Source of the DNA: Eledone cirrhosa
Taxonomy: Eukaryota
Direction of reading: 5' to 3'
DNA: 64,000 nucleotides
Assembly: GCA_964016885.1 (NCBI GenBank)
Contig: OZ024747.1
Span: 24,924,001-24,988,000, forward strand
The notes below the pieces were generated by a model. That model was not told the origin of the DNA, did no database searches, and worked only from the letters and a program-made list of their open reading frames with translations. Of the stretch, positions 27,454 to 62,842 are shown one piece after another. The translations under genes and the position numbers were made by a program. Position 1 is the stretch's first letter. Each line of letters opens with the position of its first letter.

Positions 27454-27789
27454 TGTTGATATATATTATAAATTCAAAAGGGGGTAGTGTGTGTGTGTGT
27501 GTGTGTGTGTGTGCATACACGCACACATATACAGTAATATGTGCATATAGATTCAGAAATCTAACGCTCATGCAACGGATGCTGAGGTACCTGTGACATT
27601 ATCATAGCGAGACAAAATGTATGTTTATTACACATAAGCATTGTATATGGGTCCACGTTAGCCGCAGTTCAGAACCGTATATTATCATTTAAATTTATAA
27701 CATGTAACACTGTATACTACTCTCTCTCTCTCTCCCTGTGTTAAATAAATCGGTTGTGTGTATATCAGCAAATGCCAACTATATTACTA

Positions 27790-27883
27790 GAGTTCTCGAT
27801 ACTTGGGGTAGTAGAGTGGGTAATATAGAGTTCGGATCTAGCTGTTGAAACGGCCGGAGCTCAGCCGTCGGTGTCCTGAATTT

Positions 27884-27885
<2 letters not shown>
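27790..27885. mobile_element. Short pseudo-LTR remnant related to the PLE at 56.6-60.7 kb
   Basis: ATACTTGGGGTAGTAGAGTGGGT matches 56639-56661; GAAACGGCCGGAGCTCAGCCGTCGG matches 56999-57023; abuts (TA)n. Confidence 0.75.
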
Positions 27886-27933
<48 letters not shown>

Positions 27934-49146: not shown

Positions 49147-52660
<3,514 letters not shown>

Positions 52661-52823
52661 AATATATAAGTAAGATGTATGGTAGGTCGTATGTGAATCG
52701 CGATGATCACGTCTGACCTACCAAATATGTGACGGTAGCTAGTTAAGCTCTATGCGTATACGCAGAGCAGAAATATTAGTGAAAAAGAACAAAGGAACTA
52801 TTATGACATTATAACAAGTTTAT

Positions 52824-52870
52824 TGCCGACAGCCGTTTCGTCCGACCCCATGGTGGGACTTTTCAAGGCA
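52824..52870 (-). ncRNA. Minimal hammerhead, U3-A8 core variant
   Basis: Minus strand TGCC-TTGAAAA-GTCC...GGAC-GAA-AC ggct GT-C-GGCA ATAAA. Confidence 0.8.
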
Positions 52871-53797
52871 TATAACATGTGATTTTAAGATCATTATTTA
52901 CATCAACGTATCACTCAAGGCTAGCAGTTTGAAATTGTGGTATACATCAGCAGCTCCGCTTGTATAGTTGGGGTCTATATTCTAAGGGGGCTCTTTTATA
53001 TTAGTTGTCGGGGTCAGGGATTGAAGGTTAAAAATTAGATAATATATAATTTACGCATTAACAGTAAACTAAAAGACTTGGGATCCCGTAGAAGCACCTT
53101 AAAAAATCCCTCAATAAGTGCATAAAGCTTACAGGCTCCAATAAACCTAATAAACTAGAAGAAATTAAGAGGCTAATAAAATAAAAAATAAAAATATAAA
53201 GTTTCCTATGAAATTCCTTCGAGAGGAAAAAAATTTTTTCCGAAAGAAAAAAACTTTCTTTCCCCGAGATCACGTTTACAAATTTCAGAAAACTTACGAA
53301 GTTTTGATATTCCCTACTAAGTTAAAAGAAACTAATCAATTAAAGGTTAATTCAAAGAGCCTTCTATAATTCTCTCAGAAAATGCCCCTTTAATATTTTT
53401 AATAGGAACTTCCTCCGAGAGACCCTTCGAAGAATTAAAATTTTAGAGAGCCTTAAAGGATATATATATAAAAACGAATTGAGGAAAATTATACATTAAA
53501 AGTTAAAAATTACGGTATTTGGGATATCCGAGGAATTTTCAAAGGGCTGCTTCAACAGATACAACTTAGGCATAATAGATACAATAATTTAAGTAATTTA
53601 AGTAATTTAATTAGGGAGCAATTCAAAGAGTTTATCAAGTTGGGCAAGATTAAAGAAAGTGGTAAATAAGAAAATGCATAAGCAAAAAGACAATAATTAT
53701 AAAATGTATTTTTAAGAAGGTATAAGGTAGCTTCAGTAATCTAACAATGTATTATCACAAAAAATTATTATAAAATTATTGATACAGGATTAACAAA

Positions 53798-56584: not shown

Positions 56585-56585
<1 letters not shown>

Positions 56586-56778
56586 ACGAAGGAAATGTGG
56601 TAAGGAACCAAGTGGACCATAACGCACCAAAGTACTCAATACTTAGGGTAGTAGAGTGGGTCATAGGAACAAGTAAGACCCCGACGGCTGAGCTCAAGCC
56701 GTTTTGACGGTTAATTCTGGACTGAATAAAAATTTATTCTGGTATTTAAATAGGCGAGCTTGTCAAGGGGCAATTCCA
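56585..56778 (-). repeat. Inverted pseudo-LTR segment with a G12A-mutated hammerhead
   Basis: Reverse complement of 56931-57121; reads GTC-AAAAC instead of GTC-GAAAC. Confidence 0.9.
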
Positions 56779-56933
56779 GCTGTAGCCGGCACTACCAACG
56801 CTTGAATGGGTCTACTCCACCCCCTCTCCTTTTTTCTCCTACCGGCAGGTTTATCTACCCCTTCCCCCACCATTTTGCCATCACAGATTTACTACTAACT
56901 TGTGATGTGACCAATCCTGGTGTTTATCCCTTG

Positions 56934-57025
56934 CCCCTTGACAAGCTCGGCTATTTAAATACCAGAATAAATTTTTATTCAGTCCAGAATTAGCCGTCGA
57001 AACGGCTTGAGCTCAGCCGTCGGGG
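56934..57025 (+). ncRNA. Hammerhead, U3-A8 variant with extended stem II (5' pseudo-LTR)
   Basis: CCCC-TTGACAA-GctCGGCTA...TAGCCGtC-GAA-ACGGC ttgagctca GCCGT-C-GGGG. Confidence 0.78.
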
Positions 57026-57212
57026 GTCTTACTTGTTCCTATGACCCACTCTACTACCCTAAGTATTGAGTACTTTGGTGCGTTATGGTCCACTTGGTTC
57101 CTTACCACATTTCCTTCGTTATCTAGCTCCTATCCCCGTAGTAGAGCACTTTCCGACCTTACCACGCCGTATCCAGACTTTTCCGCTGCGCTCAATTTCT
57201 TTCACCCGCACC

Positions 57213-59359
57213 ATGCGAAAACACAACATCGACTTCTCTACCAAGAACATCCCAATCCCACCGAAAAAACTTTACCTTCGGATGCTCACGCAAAAAATCG
57301 ATCTATTTGCGAAAAGACTTAGATGGAGAACTTTTTTCTACGACAGATTTTGCGACAATCAGGACTTCGGTACCAAGGAGAGATTCGAATTTATTACCTA
57401 CAAATCTCCCCCCTCCCCCCGAACCATTTGCTCTCACCCTTCGAGAATGACCTCTTCCAACTGGTCAAGAACTTTAAATTCAAACCCAGACACAACCGAT
57501 TCCTACTAAAACTCCGTAGCAACTTAACAGAGTATGATAACACCAATGACATCATGGTGCATTCGGATAAAACTGGGAACCTATACTTTGTCAACCCCGA
57601 CAAATACCACACACTGATCAGGAGCAGCCTAAACTCCACCTATAAAAAGGCTAACCACTCATGCATCGGGGACATTAATCGAGATGGACAACAAATTACC
57701 TCCAGCCTCGGGGTCGCCGACCGCACCGAACCCCTAGACCCACGGATACCCTACTTCACACTGAAGGACCACAAATCCGATTTCGACCGTAAACCATCTA
57801 TCAGGCTTATAAACCCAACGAAGTCCGACATAGGGAGAATCAGCCAAAAAATCCTAGACCGCGTGATACCAAAAGTCAAGCAACACGCCCGACTTAGCCT
57901 ATGGATCAACACCCAGGGAGTTATCTCATGGTTCAGCAATATGGAGGATAAACGAGACACTAAATTTATCCAGTTCGACATAGAGAGCTACTATGCTTCT
58001 ATCACCTTACCGCTACCTACCCTCGCCGAAGCACTTGTGCCCATCACCGACCAGGAAAGAAAAATCCCCCTCCACGCCAGGAAGACAGTCTTACTCTTTG
58101 ACAACTCCAAATGGATAAAAAGAGCTCCCGGCTCACCCTTCGACGTCAGCATGGGCGCTACGGATTCGGCGGAGGTCACAGATCTTATAGGATTATTCCT
58201 TATAGCCAAACTCACCGATATGTTTCCTGCTTTCGGTGGTGGATTGTACCGTGATGATGGGCTCCTTACCCTCAAAGGGTACAACCCCAGTAGTACAGAT
58301 CGGGTCCGTAAACAATTAATCAGCTTCTTCCGCGACTGGGGATTTAAAATAACCCTACAAACGTCTCTGACCCGAGTTAATTTCCTGGACGTTACCCTCG
58401 ATCTCAATAATGACCTGTACTACCCATACAGGAAACCCAATGACAACCTGCACTACATCCACCGCCGATCTAACCATCCTAGGAACATCACCAACAACCT
58501 GGTCAAAAACATCTCCCTCCGCATATCCCATTTGTCAGCCAATGAGAAGATATTCGATGAACATGCGCCTTACTACAACCAGGCCCTCAAGCGGAGTGGC
58601 TTCCGGGAGGAAATATCCTACTGTCCAGCTCCCATTAGCGGAACCAGCAGGCGACACCGCCGCTCACGCAATGTAACATGGTTCAATCCTCCCCACAACG
58701 CCGAGGTGACAACTCCCATCAGGAAAATCTTCTTTAGGCTCATTGAAAAACACTTCCCACCACAACACCGCTACCACAACATAATTAACAAAAATACCAT
58801 CAAACTCTCTTACAGCACTACACCTAACTTCGCACAAAACATCGTCTCCTCCAACAACAAAAAACTCAACCCCGATGGAAGAAACAACCTAAATAGCAGT
58901 GGAGAGCCGACCAGGAGGTGCAACTGTCCTGATAGATCCATTTTCCCCCTCGACAACAGATGCAGAGACCGCAATGTGATCTACCAGTGGAACGTGAGCA
59001 CGGACACCTCCAACAAAGCTTATATTGGATTAACCGCATGTGACTTCAAGACCCGGCTATACCAACACAGACATACCTTCCGAAACCCGGCCCGGCGTCA
59101 CGCCACTACACTTTCGGGCCACATATGGGACCTCAAGGACAACAACATCAACTATGATTTCACTTGGAAATTACTGTCCAGAGCCAACTCTTACACGGGA
59201 GGACGCCGTCCGTGCAATTTATGCTCGGAGGAAACTATACAAATGTTGTTTTCGACGGACCAACTCCTAAATAAGAAAGATGAACTGGTTACTGCATGTA
59301 AACACCGATTACGTAGGACTTACCTCGCCCTCAAACCCCATAATGACCCGGGGGGGTAG
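57213..59359 (+). pseudogene. PLE ORF (RT plus GIY-YIG endonuclease) with one frameshift near 57408-57421
   Basis: N-terminus MRKHNIDFSTKNIPIP...KRLRWRTFFY in one frame, then DKTGN, IRLINP, QFDIESYYASI, MGATDSAEV, LYRDD, FLDV, CNC, VIY..YIG, CNLC and CKH in another; the shift lies in a C-rich run. Confidence 0.9.
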
Positions 59360-60545
59360 ACTAGGGCTATAACACCCCACTTGCCTATTTTGTAAGGGGT
59401 AACCCCTGCTTGCCAATGGAGACGTAAGACCTTTTATCGCTTCCTTTATATTTCCTCCTTACCCCCATCCCTCCCTAGCCCTTCTACCCCAGTTCCCTTT
59501 CTTTGTCGTCGTCTTTTTCTCGCCCACCCGAGGTAGCCCCTCGGTCCCTTGTCGCTTCAGCACCCCACCCCTCCCCTACTCTATGATAGATTTGGCTGAC
59601 TCCGCTTTTTATAGCAGAGGTGTTAGACTTCGGATACTTGCCCCCTTCTCCGACCGCTGTCCCTTTTTTCCGTGCCTTCTATATTTCTTAGTGGCATTTT
59701 TGCTTTAATTTTTCGTTTAACCAGTATTTCTTTCCTCTTTTCCATTTTTTTTTTTTGGGGGGGGGGGTTTCTGTATTAATTTTCCGTTCCTTACTTTTAC
59801 CTCGCACGATCTTTCATGTAGCCTGTATAAGACTTTTTGTTTCGTGGCGGTACCCTTAGAGTTAGCACGAGTATTTTTTTGCGGGACCCTGAATTATATT
59901 CTCGTACTAGTTTACCCTCTTGCTCTGGGTGGTTGCTGGCCCCGTGATCGGGGTAGAAACCTTTATTATTTCGTGGTAGTCTCTTTAGTATTTTGCCCCC
60001 CCCCCCCCTTGTCGACCCGTCACCGTACGATACACGCACTTATACCTCGTATAAGGGTCCCTCTATTTCCGTCCCACCTAGTTTATTTTCATTTATTTTT
60101 TATTCTTCATTATATATATATATATTTTTTTTTTTTTTTATTAAATTTATTTATCTATTCTTTTATTCACTTATTTGTTTATTTATTTATTTATGTATTT
60201 CTTTAGCCTAGCAATAGCGAGAGACTTAAGTCTTAGTAACCAGACCTTGCTTATTTTCTCTTTTCTCTCTCTCAGTACTTTTCATAGTTTTACCCTTCAT
60301 TGTTCTTACTTACCGTTTCGACTTCCTCCCCTCCCCCTCCCCTCCCCAGTATCCTCTTTGACCTGACACCCAGCTGTAGCCGGCACTACTAACGCTTGAA
60401 TGGGTCTACTCCACCCCCCTCTCCCTTTTTCTCCTACCGGCAGGTTCAGCTACCCCTTCCCCCACCATTTTGCCATCACAGATTTACTACTAACTTGTGA
60501 TGTGACCAATCCTGGTGTGTATCTCTTTGACCATATATGGAATTG

Positions 60546-60637
60546 CCCCTTGACAAGCTCGGCTATTTAAATACCAGAATAAATTTTTATTCAGTCCAAA
60601 ATTAGCCGTCGAAACGGCTTGAGCTCAGCCGTCGGGG
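60546..60637 (+). ncRNA. Hammerhead, U3-A8 variant (3' pseudo-LTR)
   Basis: Same motif as 56934-57025; predicted cut after GUC at 60633, about 18 nt before the TA tract. Confidence 0.78.
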
Positions 60638-60648
60638 TCTTACTTGTT

Positions 60649-60703
<55 letters not shown>

Positions 60704-60750
60704 TAAGGAAAAAGAACAAAGGAACTTTTATGACATTATAACAAGTTTAT

Positions 60751-60797
60751 TGCCGACAGCCGTTTCGTCCGACCATATGGTGGGACTTTTCAAGGCA
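60751..60797 (-). ncRNA. Minimal hammerhead, U3-A8 variant (left arm)
   Basis: Minus strand TGCC-TTGAAAA-GTCCcACCatatGGTcGGAC-GAA-ACggctGT-C-GGCA. Confidence 0.8.
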
Positions 60798-62602
60798 TAT
60801 AACAGGTAATTGTAAGTTCATCATTTTCATCAACGTTTCACTCAAGCTTAGCAGTTTGAAATCGTGGTATACATCAACAGCTCAGCTTGTTTATCTGGGG
60901 TCTATATTCTAAGGGGGCTCTTTTATAATAGTTGTAGGAGTTGTAAAAGGGATGGGTTAGAGGGAATTAAGAGAATTTGAAAAGGGCCTAAAAGTTAGGG
61001 ATTGAAGGTTAAAAATTAAAGAATTTATAAGTTACGCATTAAAAGTAAAAGACTTGAGATCCCCCAAAAGCACCTTAAAAAACACCTCAATAAGCGCATA
61101 AAGCTTATAAGCCCCAATAAACCTAAAAAAACAGAAGAGATTAAGAGAATAAAAAATAAAAAGTTTCCTAAAAAATTCCTTCAAAAAAGGTTTTCTAAAA
61201 AATTCCCTTAAAAAAATTTAAGAAAGTTTACGAAGATTTAATAATCCCTCCGAAAGTTCTAAACTTAAAAATTAAAAATTAGGGGAAAAAAAAAAAAATA
61301 CTTTCAAAAAGATTTAAGAGGTTAATAAAGTTAATGATTTAGGGAATCCATAATATAAAGATTAAGATTTAAGTTAGGATTTTAAGTTTAAGAGTTCCAA
61401 ACCCAGAAATTAAAAAATTTAATGAATTTAAGAAATCTTATATATCCAAGATTAAAAATTAGAGATTAAGAGGTTGAACATTAAATTTAAAAATTAAGAA
61501 ATAAATAGTTGAAAGAAATTAATCAATTAAAGGTTAATTCAAAAAGCCTTCAAAAAATCCCTCAGAAAAGGCCTCTTTAATATTTTTAATAAAAACCTCT
61601 TCCGAAAGACCCTTCAAAGAATTAAAAATTTAGAGAACCTTTAAATATATATATAAATGAATTGAGGAAAATTACAAATTACAAATTACGGAATTTGAGA
61701 GATCCGAGGAATTTCCAAAGGGTTGCTTCAACAGATACAACAATTTAGGTATAATAAATAAAGTAATTTAAGTAATCTAATTAAGGATCAATTCAAAGAG
61801 CTTATCAAGTTGGGCTCGAAGATTAAAGAAAATGATAAGTAAGAAAATATATAAGTAAAAAGACAATAATTATTGTATAATAATATTTACTTGATAAGCT
61901 CTTTGAATTGATCCTTAATTAGATTACTTAAATTACTTTATTTATTATACCTAAGTTGTTGTATCTGTTGAAGCAACCCTTTGGAAATTCCTCGGATCTC
62001 CCAAATTCCGTAATTTGTAATTTGTAATTTTCCTCAATTCATTTATATATATTTTTAAAGGTTCTCTAAATTTTTAATTCTTTGAAGGGTCTTTCGGAAG
62101 AGGTTTTTATTAAAAATATTAAAGAGGCCTTTTCTGAGGGATTTTTTGAAGGCTTTTTGAATTAACCTTTAATTGATTAATTTTTTCAACTATTTATTTC
62201 TTAATTTTTAAATTTAATGTTCAACCTCTTAATCACTAATTTTTAATCTTAGATATATAAAATTTCTTAATCTTAAATTCATTAAATTTTTAAATTTCTG
62301 GGTTTAGAACTCTTAAACTTCAAATCCTAACTTAAATCTTAATCTTTATATTATGGATTCCCTAAATCATTAACTTTATTAACCTCTTAAATCTTTTTGA
62401 AAGTATTTTTTTTTTTTTTCCTAATTTTTAATTTTTAAGTTTAGAACTTTCGGAGGGATAATTAAATCTTCGTAAATTTTCTTAAATTTTTTTAAGGGAA
62501 TTTTTTAGAAAAATTTTTTTGAAGGAATTTTTTAGGAAACATTTTATTTTTTTTATTCGTGAAACGTTGATGAAAATGATGAACTTACAATTACCTGTTA
62601 TA

Positions 62603-62649
62603 TGCCTTGAAAAGTCACACCATATGGTCGGACGAAACGGCTGTCGGCA
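62603..62649 (+). ncRNA. Minimal hammerhead, U3-A8 variant (right arm)
   Basis: TGCC-TTGAAAA-GTCacACCatatGGTcgGAC-GAA-ACggctGT-C-GGCA ATAAA; one extra stem II mismatch. Confidence 0.75.
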
Positions 62650-62842
62650 ATAAACTTGTAATAATGTCATAAAGTTCCTTTATTCTTTTTCCTTAATGTT
62701 TCTGATCTACAAAGTTCCTTTATTCTTTTTCCTTAATGTTTCTGATCTACTTATACGCATAGAGCTTAACTAGCTACCGTCGCATATTTAGTAGGTCAGG
62801 CGTGATCATCGCGATTTACGTACGACCTACCATACATCTTGC

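Follow-up and report, generated by a model that had tools for sequence, protein, structure and literature searches.

A conserved U3-A8 hammerhead motif in a Hydra-type Penelope-like retroelement of Eledone cirrhosa, and a likely transcription start within its stem II insert

The window analysed here is a 64,000-nucleotide stretch of the Eledone cirrhosa genome. It holds a dead copy of a Penelope-like retroelement (PLE) that carries a type I hammerhead motif in both of its direct pseudo-LTRs (Table 1). An inverted truncated partner, two direct pseudo-LTRs and an optional tail make up the textbook layout of a PLE. In the window copy the reading frame is broken by a frameshift near 57420-57430 and a 4-residue deletion, and one linker Cys has been replaced. 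We infer that the short and long 3′ ends of the tail are reverse-transcription start sites, by analogy with the two internal start sites reported for an Anolis element (PMC11167929). Other repeats share the window. A long open frame at 50051-52717 on the reverse strand has a non-LTR retrotransposon reverse transcriptase (RT) domain and adjoins (TA)n. A long near-perfect inverted repeat at 61151-62552 (within 60700-62700) belongs to another repeat family, and a diverged second copy of it lies about 8 kb upstream, at 52770-53700.

Table 1. Features of the PLE family in the window; offsets such as +18 are counted from the predicted cut
Position	Strand	Feature
27773..27890	.	Head-to-head stub of an older relative; + arm from the start motif (A 27829)
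56585..56778	-	5′-truncated partner of the pseudo-LTR in inverted orientation, with (TA)n at its long (tail) end
56679..56770	-	Damaged third hammerhead copy, with A in place of G12 and two changes in stem II
56776..57121	+	5′ direct pseudo-LTR, tail included; upstream of stem I a deletion of about 17 nt
56934..57025	+	Type I hammerhead, U3 (56938)-A8 (56943) core; predicted cut after C 57021
56966..56971	+	AATAAA, subfamily-specific, not conserved
56977..56984	+	Putative RNA start in TCAGTC, with A 56981 as the main +1 and possibly a minor start near 56977
57042..57121	+	Tail, optional, about 80 nt, from the short 3′ end (+18 to +20) to the long one (+100)
57213..59359	+	Open reading frame for Hydra-type RT with C-terminal GIY-YIG, dead copy
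60370..60653	+	3′ direct pseudo-LTR, with (TA)n at its short end
60546..60637	+	Hammerhead of the 3′ direct pseudo-LTR; A 60593 corresponds to the putative start; predicted cut after C 60633

The protein marks, the pseudo-LTR layout and the (TA)n target together point to the Hydra clade of PLEs. A Pfam search with the two broken pieces of the window frame gave no match. Elsewhere in the genome we found intact open stretches of 784 codons, and the intact protein, to which the window copy is 93% identical, carries RWR, DKT, CNCPDRSIC (CxCx5C), YIG, CNLC and CKH and has no CCHH; its homologues are about 38-53% identical. These are features shared with the C-terminal EN+ PLEs of the Hydra clade (Craig et al. 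2021, PMC8557442), namely RW[KR], DKT, the CxCx5C linker, CxxC with CxH and the lack of CCHH, and the (TA)n target, pseudo-LTRs, inverted 5′ partner and optional tail of those elements are all present as well. Two traits that are general in the clade, although not diagnostic of it, are absent. The Hydra rows of File S2 in that paper have CUGANGA in 26 of 26 cases with a loop 2 of 3-10 nt, from which the Eledone element differs, and Hydra units are below 3 kb, whereas the unit here measures 3.5-3.6 kb. The only elements listed in the same source with a loop 2 of about 30-35 nt are two PLE-X elements of spike mosses.

The family is probably still active, since near-identical units with intact reading frames occur elsewhere in the genome as tandem arrays with a 3,531-bp period. 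Arrays of at least three such units have periods of 3,531-3,544 bp, and several contain intact frames. At C3:214.146 Mb there is also a short tandem array of about 274-bp units, each made of the pseudo-LTR 3′ half and the start of the reading frame, which has a retrozyme-like layout but is without the ribozyme 5′ half.

The hammerhead itself is a real motif. In the first direct copy the stem I strands are CCCC (56934-37) and GGGG, the core TTGACAA (56938-44) is followed by G 56945, which faces C 56998, and stem II pairs CGGCTA (56948-53) with TAGCCG (56991-96) and encloses a 37-nt insert. GAAA follows at 56999-57002, then a palindromic stem III (ACGGC/GCCGT), with C17 at 57021; TATTTAAA is located at 56952-59 in the stem II region. 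A preliminary description of this DNA had named these stems, the core, the GAAA and the cut site, and all of them are there, as is the repeat that it reported; this lies 3612 nt downstream, where 60543-60637 is 99% identical to the first direct copy. Both direct copies have U3-A8, and the other marks of a type I hammerhead core are in place: a Watson-Crick pair at 3-8, G12-A13-A14, A15.1-U16.1 and H17. Beyond CCCC/GGGG, stem I continues with a fifth pair and a distal extension that the upstream deletion has removed from the 56934 copy. In the third, inverted copy stem II is broken. An Rfam scan of the window hammerhead gave no match at the gathering score. With its U3-A8 core the motif would be missed by a CUGANGA search, just as had been anticipated.

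Hammerheads of this class in PLEs have already been published and are not new here. U3-A8 was reported as a natural covariation in 2011 (PMC3088659), and U3-A8 hammerheads, about 1,300 hits in number, are described in the Cercyon PLEs of Schistosoma (Cervera and De la Pena 2014, PMC4209133). Cercyon and the Eledone element share a type I hammerhead in both pseudo-LTRs, U3-A8, a long helix II, a palindromic helix III and many single and opposite-strand genomic motifs. Set against what the Cercyon paper describes, the Eledone family alone has a 37-39-nt stem II insert, a stem III of 5-6 bp that is able to form in a monomer, subfamilies with C3.A8 and U3.G8, and a putative RNA start within the ribozyme.

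The structure is well conserved across the family. Among 11 subfamilies, 5 of 57 structural positions vary, whereas the insert varies at 17 of its 37 positions and the sequence immediately downstream at 12 of 15. The variable positions are 3, 7, 10.2, the loop-closing base of stem III and one G-C to G.U change; a small subfamily additionally carries G8. RNAalifold recovers all three hammerhead stems from 16 copies, and compensatory double changes are seen in none of 16 pairs within this young family. When older relatives, which we found through the head-to-head stub at 27829-27890 of the window, are added, double changes appear at 6 of 23 pairs, namely 3-8 and five pairs of stem II; one of these rests on a single sequence and another may be a point mutation. 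This count is reached by 34 of 500 shuffles and reflects few independent events among kin. Paired combinations fill 87.5% of the alignment cells, against 29-46% in slid controls. The preliminary description had held that a lack of conservation and covariation in the stems would speak against a ribozyme; both are found once the older relatives are included, and they support its type I hammerhead in PLE pseudo-LTRs. That said, the conservation of the stems could partly reflect promoter or protein-binding constraints.

Folding predictions give a more varied picture. The 92-mer is more stable than its shuffles (z = -2.83). In the window copies, the hammerhead fold is predicted to lie 4.9-6.1 and 3.0 kcal/mol above the minimum, and the best prediction is a rod, with partners exchanged between the arms of stems II and III. 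Both stems share CGGCU/AGCCG (56948-56953, 56991-56996, 57003-57007 and 57015-57019), so the arms can swap into this inactive rod. In the youngest subfamily, which has an intact reading frame, sequence changes are predicted to abolish the preference for the rod; there the hammerhead has the lowest predicted energy, and a double hammerhead is predicted for the dimer. We also considered a pseudoknot between loop II and an upstream 10-mer and rejected it, because the upstream partner differs or is missing where the loop matches.

A good illustration of how the core has evolved is the 3-8 pair. A genome search that permitted covariation at these positions, as the preliminary description had proposed, returned thousands of U3-A8 matches (5,282, against 0 for the reversed control of the pattern) together with 1,729 C3.A8 and 106 non-A8 matches. 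Their sum means that at least 7,117 genomic copies carry the ribozyme 5′ half. Among 100 of the 106 non-A8 matches, classified by eye, 47 were U3.G8, 8 C3-G8 and 1 A3.G8, and 44 had a pyrimidine at position 8. We therefore rejected C3-G8 as a state inside the young family, where these 8 copies are at the level of point mutations. A small subfamily does have a U3.G8 wobble, and an A10.2-U11.2 pair is seen there and again in the youngest subfamily. The older relatives differ. One group of 30 loci, read by eye, has C3-G8 in 19, U3.G8 in 3, U3-A8 in 2 and C3.A8 in 2-3, the rest being other combinations; a second group, also read by eye, has U3 with A8 in 19 of 20.

A tree was built from the last 450 nt of the reading frame in 47 copies, with a midpoint root on two older relatives; the core label of one copy is displaced by one base. 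An earlier rooting with a sister family put the root among the youngest copies, which we judged to be a long-branch artefact, and closer relatives were used in its place. The tree is a ladder that runs from old U3-A8 copies through 11 C3 copies on the trunk to a young U3 clade, which takes in the window copy and the intact copies. Support is 98/91 for the entry into C3.A8 and 99/98 for the exit to the young U3 clade, and the C3.A8 stretch of the trunk spans about 0.07 changes per site. We infer that the 3-8 pair of this lineage passed from C-G to U.G, U-A, C.A and back to U-A, the oldest part of this order (C-G, U.G, U-A) resting on decay and intermediates because the C3-G8 copies of the oldest group are absent from the tree. 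Intermediate insert sequences favour point reversion for the return from C.A to U-A over recombination between the reading frame and the pseudo-LTR. Judged from these copies, the mismatched C3.A8 core did not halt the spread of the element, and the hammerhead fold has been maintained.

The most informative evidence on how the element is copied comes from its 5′ ends. An anchor in the tail has 28,572 genome matches, four times the approximately 7,117 copies with a ribozyme 5′ half. For 100 copies around the first 100 tail matches, all within the first 25 Mb of one contig, we mapped 5′ ends by comparison with 12 natural reference copies. In this sample 61 copies begin between -46 and -34 from the cut, with a mode of 14 copies at -41; none begins at -59 to -47, one begins at -60 and 10 lie beyond -133, while 16 start at -30 to -4 and 12-13 at -1 or later. 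The scatter over -46 to -34 arises partly through microhomology and added bases. Position -41 corresponds to A 56981 in TCAGTC, which reads TTAGTC in most subfamilies. The 9-mer that holds this A, AGTCCAGAA, is invariant across the 11 subfamilies while the rest of the insert is variable, and older relatives have YAGT at the same offset in a different insert. We take this motif to resemble an RNA polymerase II initiator. No conserved TATA box is seen near -30 from it, since TATTTAAA, at -29 in the window, varies among subfamilies and does not occur in the older relatives.

The inverted arms halt at the same base as the direct 5′ ends. In 309 head-to-head junctions both arms end at the start A, with a 3-nt spacer. 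Among the 50 junctions listed, which were read by eye, an untemplated G occurs on both arms in 32, on one arm in 6 and on neither in 12. The genomic base before the start A is T or C; with two non-T bases upstream, G precedes the start A in 847 matches and A or C jointly in 994. An extra untemplated G is the trace left when an RT copies an RNA cap, although a literature search on cap copying as an extra G found no paper. The older-relative stub in the window also has a G before its start motif, and its + arm begins at that motif and so holds only the hammerhead 3′ half. Runs of added A or T occur at some loop II boundaries and suggest non-templated addition by the RT at the end of the template. 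We rejected a 3′ splice site at the YAG of the insert, as the copies retain the AG and share no upstream exon. As judged from these DNA junctions, then, the elements have a sharp 5′ end on a conserved initiator-like motif, and a capped RNA polymerase II start at the equivalent of A 56981 in loop II is likely.

A sister Hydra-type family, with a 713-codon open frame and 6,591 anchor matches, may be mentioned here. Its hammerhead is atypical, having an intact C3-G8 pair, A at position 4 and a short loop 2. Copies of this family begin at the A of TTAGTT, which is the first base of its stem I; the extra G is found at the boundary in 6 of 100 rows, and the cut site is mostly intact.

Is the RNA cut? 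In the 100-copy sample, 87 copies pass through the cut site intact and 4 start at -1 to +1, where neighbouring positions have about one each. A reading in which insertion starts concentrate mainly at the cut site was dropped after this unbiased sample. A targeted cut-site pattern gave 322 matches, five-G variants making up 38 among the 100 listed, and 14 of 30 fetched loci are true junctions that begin exactly at the G after GUC. Control patterns gave 111 matches at +7, 133 at -6 and 104 at +30; 63 among the 100 listed for -6 reflect palindrome microhomology, and 11 of 20 at +30 are true. Allowing for the stricter cut-site pattern, this is a rough 2-3-fold excess of cut-site starts over their neighbours. 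At loci with an inverted arm, judged by eye, the arm halts downstream of the cut in 6 of 6 cases, compared with 1 of 6 in the +30 control. Some cutting by the ribozyme in living cells is thus plausible on the evidence of these junctions. The preliminary description went further and envisaged two cuts that release a 3.6-kb RNA. This does not stand as the main route, given that the dominant 5′ end lies in loop II and most copies cross the cut intact. For the window element such a product is unlikely, because its reading frame is dead and an inverted copy beside the front repeat could pair with that repeat.

Copies that retain the reading frame behave differently from the rest. Of 46 rows of ends linked to the frame, with duplicates among them, 1 falls on the loop II boundary and 2 fall on the cut site, which suggests that full-length copies come mostly from longer-than-unit templates. 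We consider that these would be either genomic tandems or circles.

From these observations we propose that the long stem II insert of a conserved hammerhead probably holds a capped transcription start, so that the RNA begins with the 3′ half of the ribozyme. In this model RNA polymerase II would initiate at A 56981, and the element's RT would copy the cap as an extra G. On the sense RNA, the RT would begin either about 18-20 nt or about 100 nt downstream of the cut, and an insertion would often involve two such starts, from opposite target strands. On the front copy the RT would run off at +1 and leave head-to-head stubs of about 60-140 bp, and longer insertions would come from copying a downstream repeat. 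As the front of the RNA would carry only the ribozyme 3′ half, it would be unable to cut itself in cis, and a whole ribozyme would exist only in downstream pseudo-LTR copies, where it is predicted to be slow and dependent on fold or partner. Most RNAs that become insertions would be uncut there. The ribozyme would probably trim or circularise a minority of read-through transcripts, and it may be kept by weak selection while being dispensable for individual transposition.

Parts of this model have precedents. Promoters in pseudo-LTRs and internal RT starts have been published (PMC2377424, PMC8557442, PMC11167929), and the Penelope element of Drosophila virilis and Chlamys-3_cRei likewise have a start in the pseudo-LTR and an initiator-like motif, with a TATA box unnecessary (PMC2377424, PMC8557442). 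Transcription in D. virilis begins upstream of an intron, and the end of this intron maps to helix I (PMC2377424, PMC4209133). The ribozyme there is thus downstream of the start, whereas in the Eledone element the start would split the ribozyme. The Poseidon element PAc of Anolis (Frangieh et al. 2024, PMC11167929) shares two internal RT starts downstream of the ribozyme, which define a tail, and uses uncut RNA as its main template. It differs in its canonical core and in a tail of 30-40 nt compared with about 80, and the available text maps no RNA 5′ end within its ribozyme, unlike the start proposed here. An inverted partner joined head to head at the 5′ end is also known from Penelope junctions of Adineta (Arkhipova et al. 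2013, PMC3846280). Its authors prefer an antisense template and self-priming as the explanation. In Eledone both arms stop at a single base and each bears an extra G, a pattern that argues against this and for a capped sense template that was copied twice. The literature on PLE promoters and hammerheads, in the portions available, places no start site inside a PLE hammerhead.

We have weighed several other readings. In one of them, put forward for PLE hammerheads in PMC4209133, the ribozyme is active in replication. A read-through tandem RNA would be cut at successive pseudo-LTRs and ligated to a unit circle, or the two ends of the RNA would pair into one hybrid hammerhead. The circle would serve as template for full-length and tandem insertions, and the capped linear RNA would yield only stubs and protein. 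The near-identical tandem units, the ORF-linked copies that usually reach past their own start site, the stubs that start exactly after GUC and the inverted arms that stop downstream of the cut all fit this reading, as do the return from C.A to U-A and the gain of A10.2-U11.2 in more than one subfamily. On the other hand, the C3.A8 subfamilies left their 1,729 copies along a trunk stretch of about 0.07 changes per site, few starts in the unbiased sample lie at the cut, and genomic tandems account for longer-than-unit templates without circles. For Anolis, insertion in vitro is unaffected by ribozyme mutants, and the available text shows no RNA ends at the cut (PMC11167929). On balance we hold an active role in replication to be possible but doubtful. 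A related idea, which we offer tentatively and consider rather unlikely, is that the split ribozyme acts as a completeness sensor. The front of the RNA would hold the 3′ half and its far end the 5′ half, so that an active hammerhead would arise at the front only if a full-length RNA brought its ends together; it would then cut and circularise the unit for transposition, and the stubs would be capped sense RNA copied twice.

At the other extreme, the ribozyme could be a dead relic whose sequence is retained only for an overlapping promoter and for RNA structure that binds the RT. The spread of the C.A and U.G states points this way, together with the predicted misfolding of the window copies and the sister family, which keeps uncut 5′ ends with an A at core position 4. 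We nevertheless find this reading unlikely, because U4, G5, A6, A9, G12-A14, A15.1, U16.1 and C17 are constant over 11 subfamilies while N7 is free, the 3-8 pair regains Watson-Crick pairing and cut-site starts are in excess.

The nature of the loop II boundary can also be questioned. It might be a processing end or a strong RT stop, produced by 3′-end cleavage near the hexamer, by a nuclease cut or by a stall at a stem II hairpin, in place of a transcription start. In the window subfamily the boundary falls at a CA that follows AATAAA by about 10 nt, an insert hairpin is possible in all sampled subfamilies and some junctions bear the added A/T runs. However, subfamilies without AATAAA have the same boundary, the RT gets through the stronger stems III and II, the untemplated G on both arms is unexpected from an uncapped end or a stall, and the sister family has its boundary on a similar YAGT motif in an unrelated structure. 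A processing end or RT stop is accordingly improbable in our view, and we retain the transcription start in loop II as the preferred reading.

The hexamer itself is a recent feature of an AT-rich loop, as far as its distribution goes. At the insert, AATAAA has 576 matches against at least 7,117 copies. Among the copies sampled, 30 of 37 from the window's subfamily have it, but 0 of 17 from the youngest subfamily with an intact reading frame and none from most old subfamilies, and the older relatives have a wholly different GC-rich insert of comparable length without it. The GAATAA/TTATTC hairpin over the hexamer, also noted in the preliminary description, is present in all three window copies with 6 bp; it is weak alone (46-mer z = -1.32), and the exact form is confined to the small sub-subfamily of the window. 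GATAAA, a weaker polyadenylation hexamer than AATAAA, occupies the position in some young subfamilies. The proposal that ribozyme folding hides AAUAAA and so competes with polyadenylation, for which this hairpin and the GATAAA copies might speak, is highly improbable given the rarity of the hexamer and its absence from the youngest subfamily and the older relatives, and given the 3′ ends of the copies viewed, which lie at +18/+20 or +100 in (TA)n and not in poly(A) near the hexamer.

What makes this family interesting, in our opinion, is not U3-A8 itself but the natural history of the core and the putative start site within the ribozyme. Searches for CUGANGA miss the hammerhead of the window family and that of the sister family alike. 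The genome offers a natural series of cores, C-G, U.G, U-A and C.A, in which a lineage with a mismatched 3-8 pair kept spreading and then regained the pair. The role of PLE hammerheads and the template strand of head-to-head junctions are open questions in the field (PMC8557442, PMC11167929, PMC3846280). This family supplies tens of thousands of natural insertion records that bear on both. These records locate the likely RNA start to the base, within the ribozyme, and argue for a capped sense template that is copied twice.
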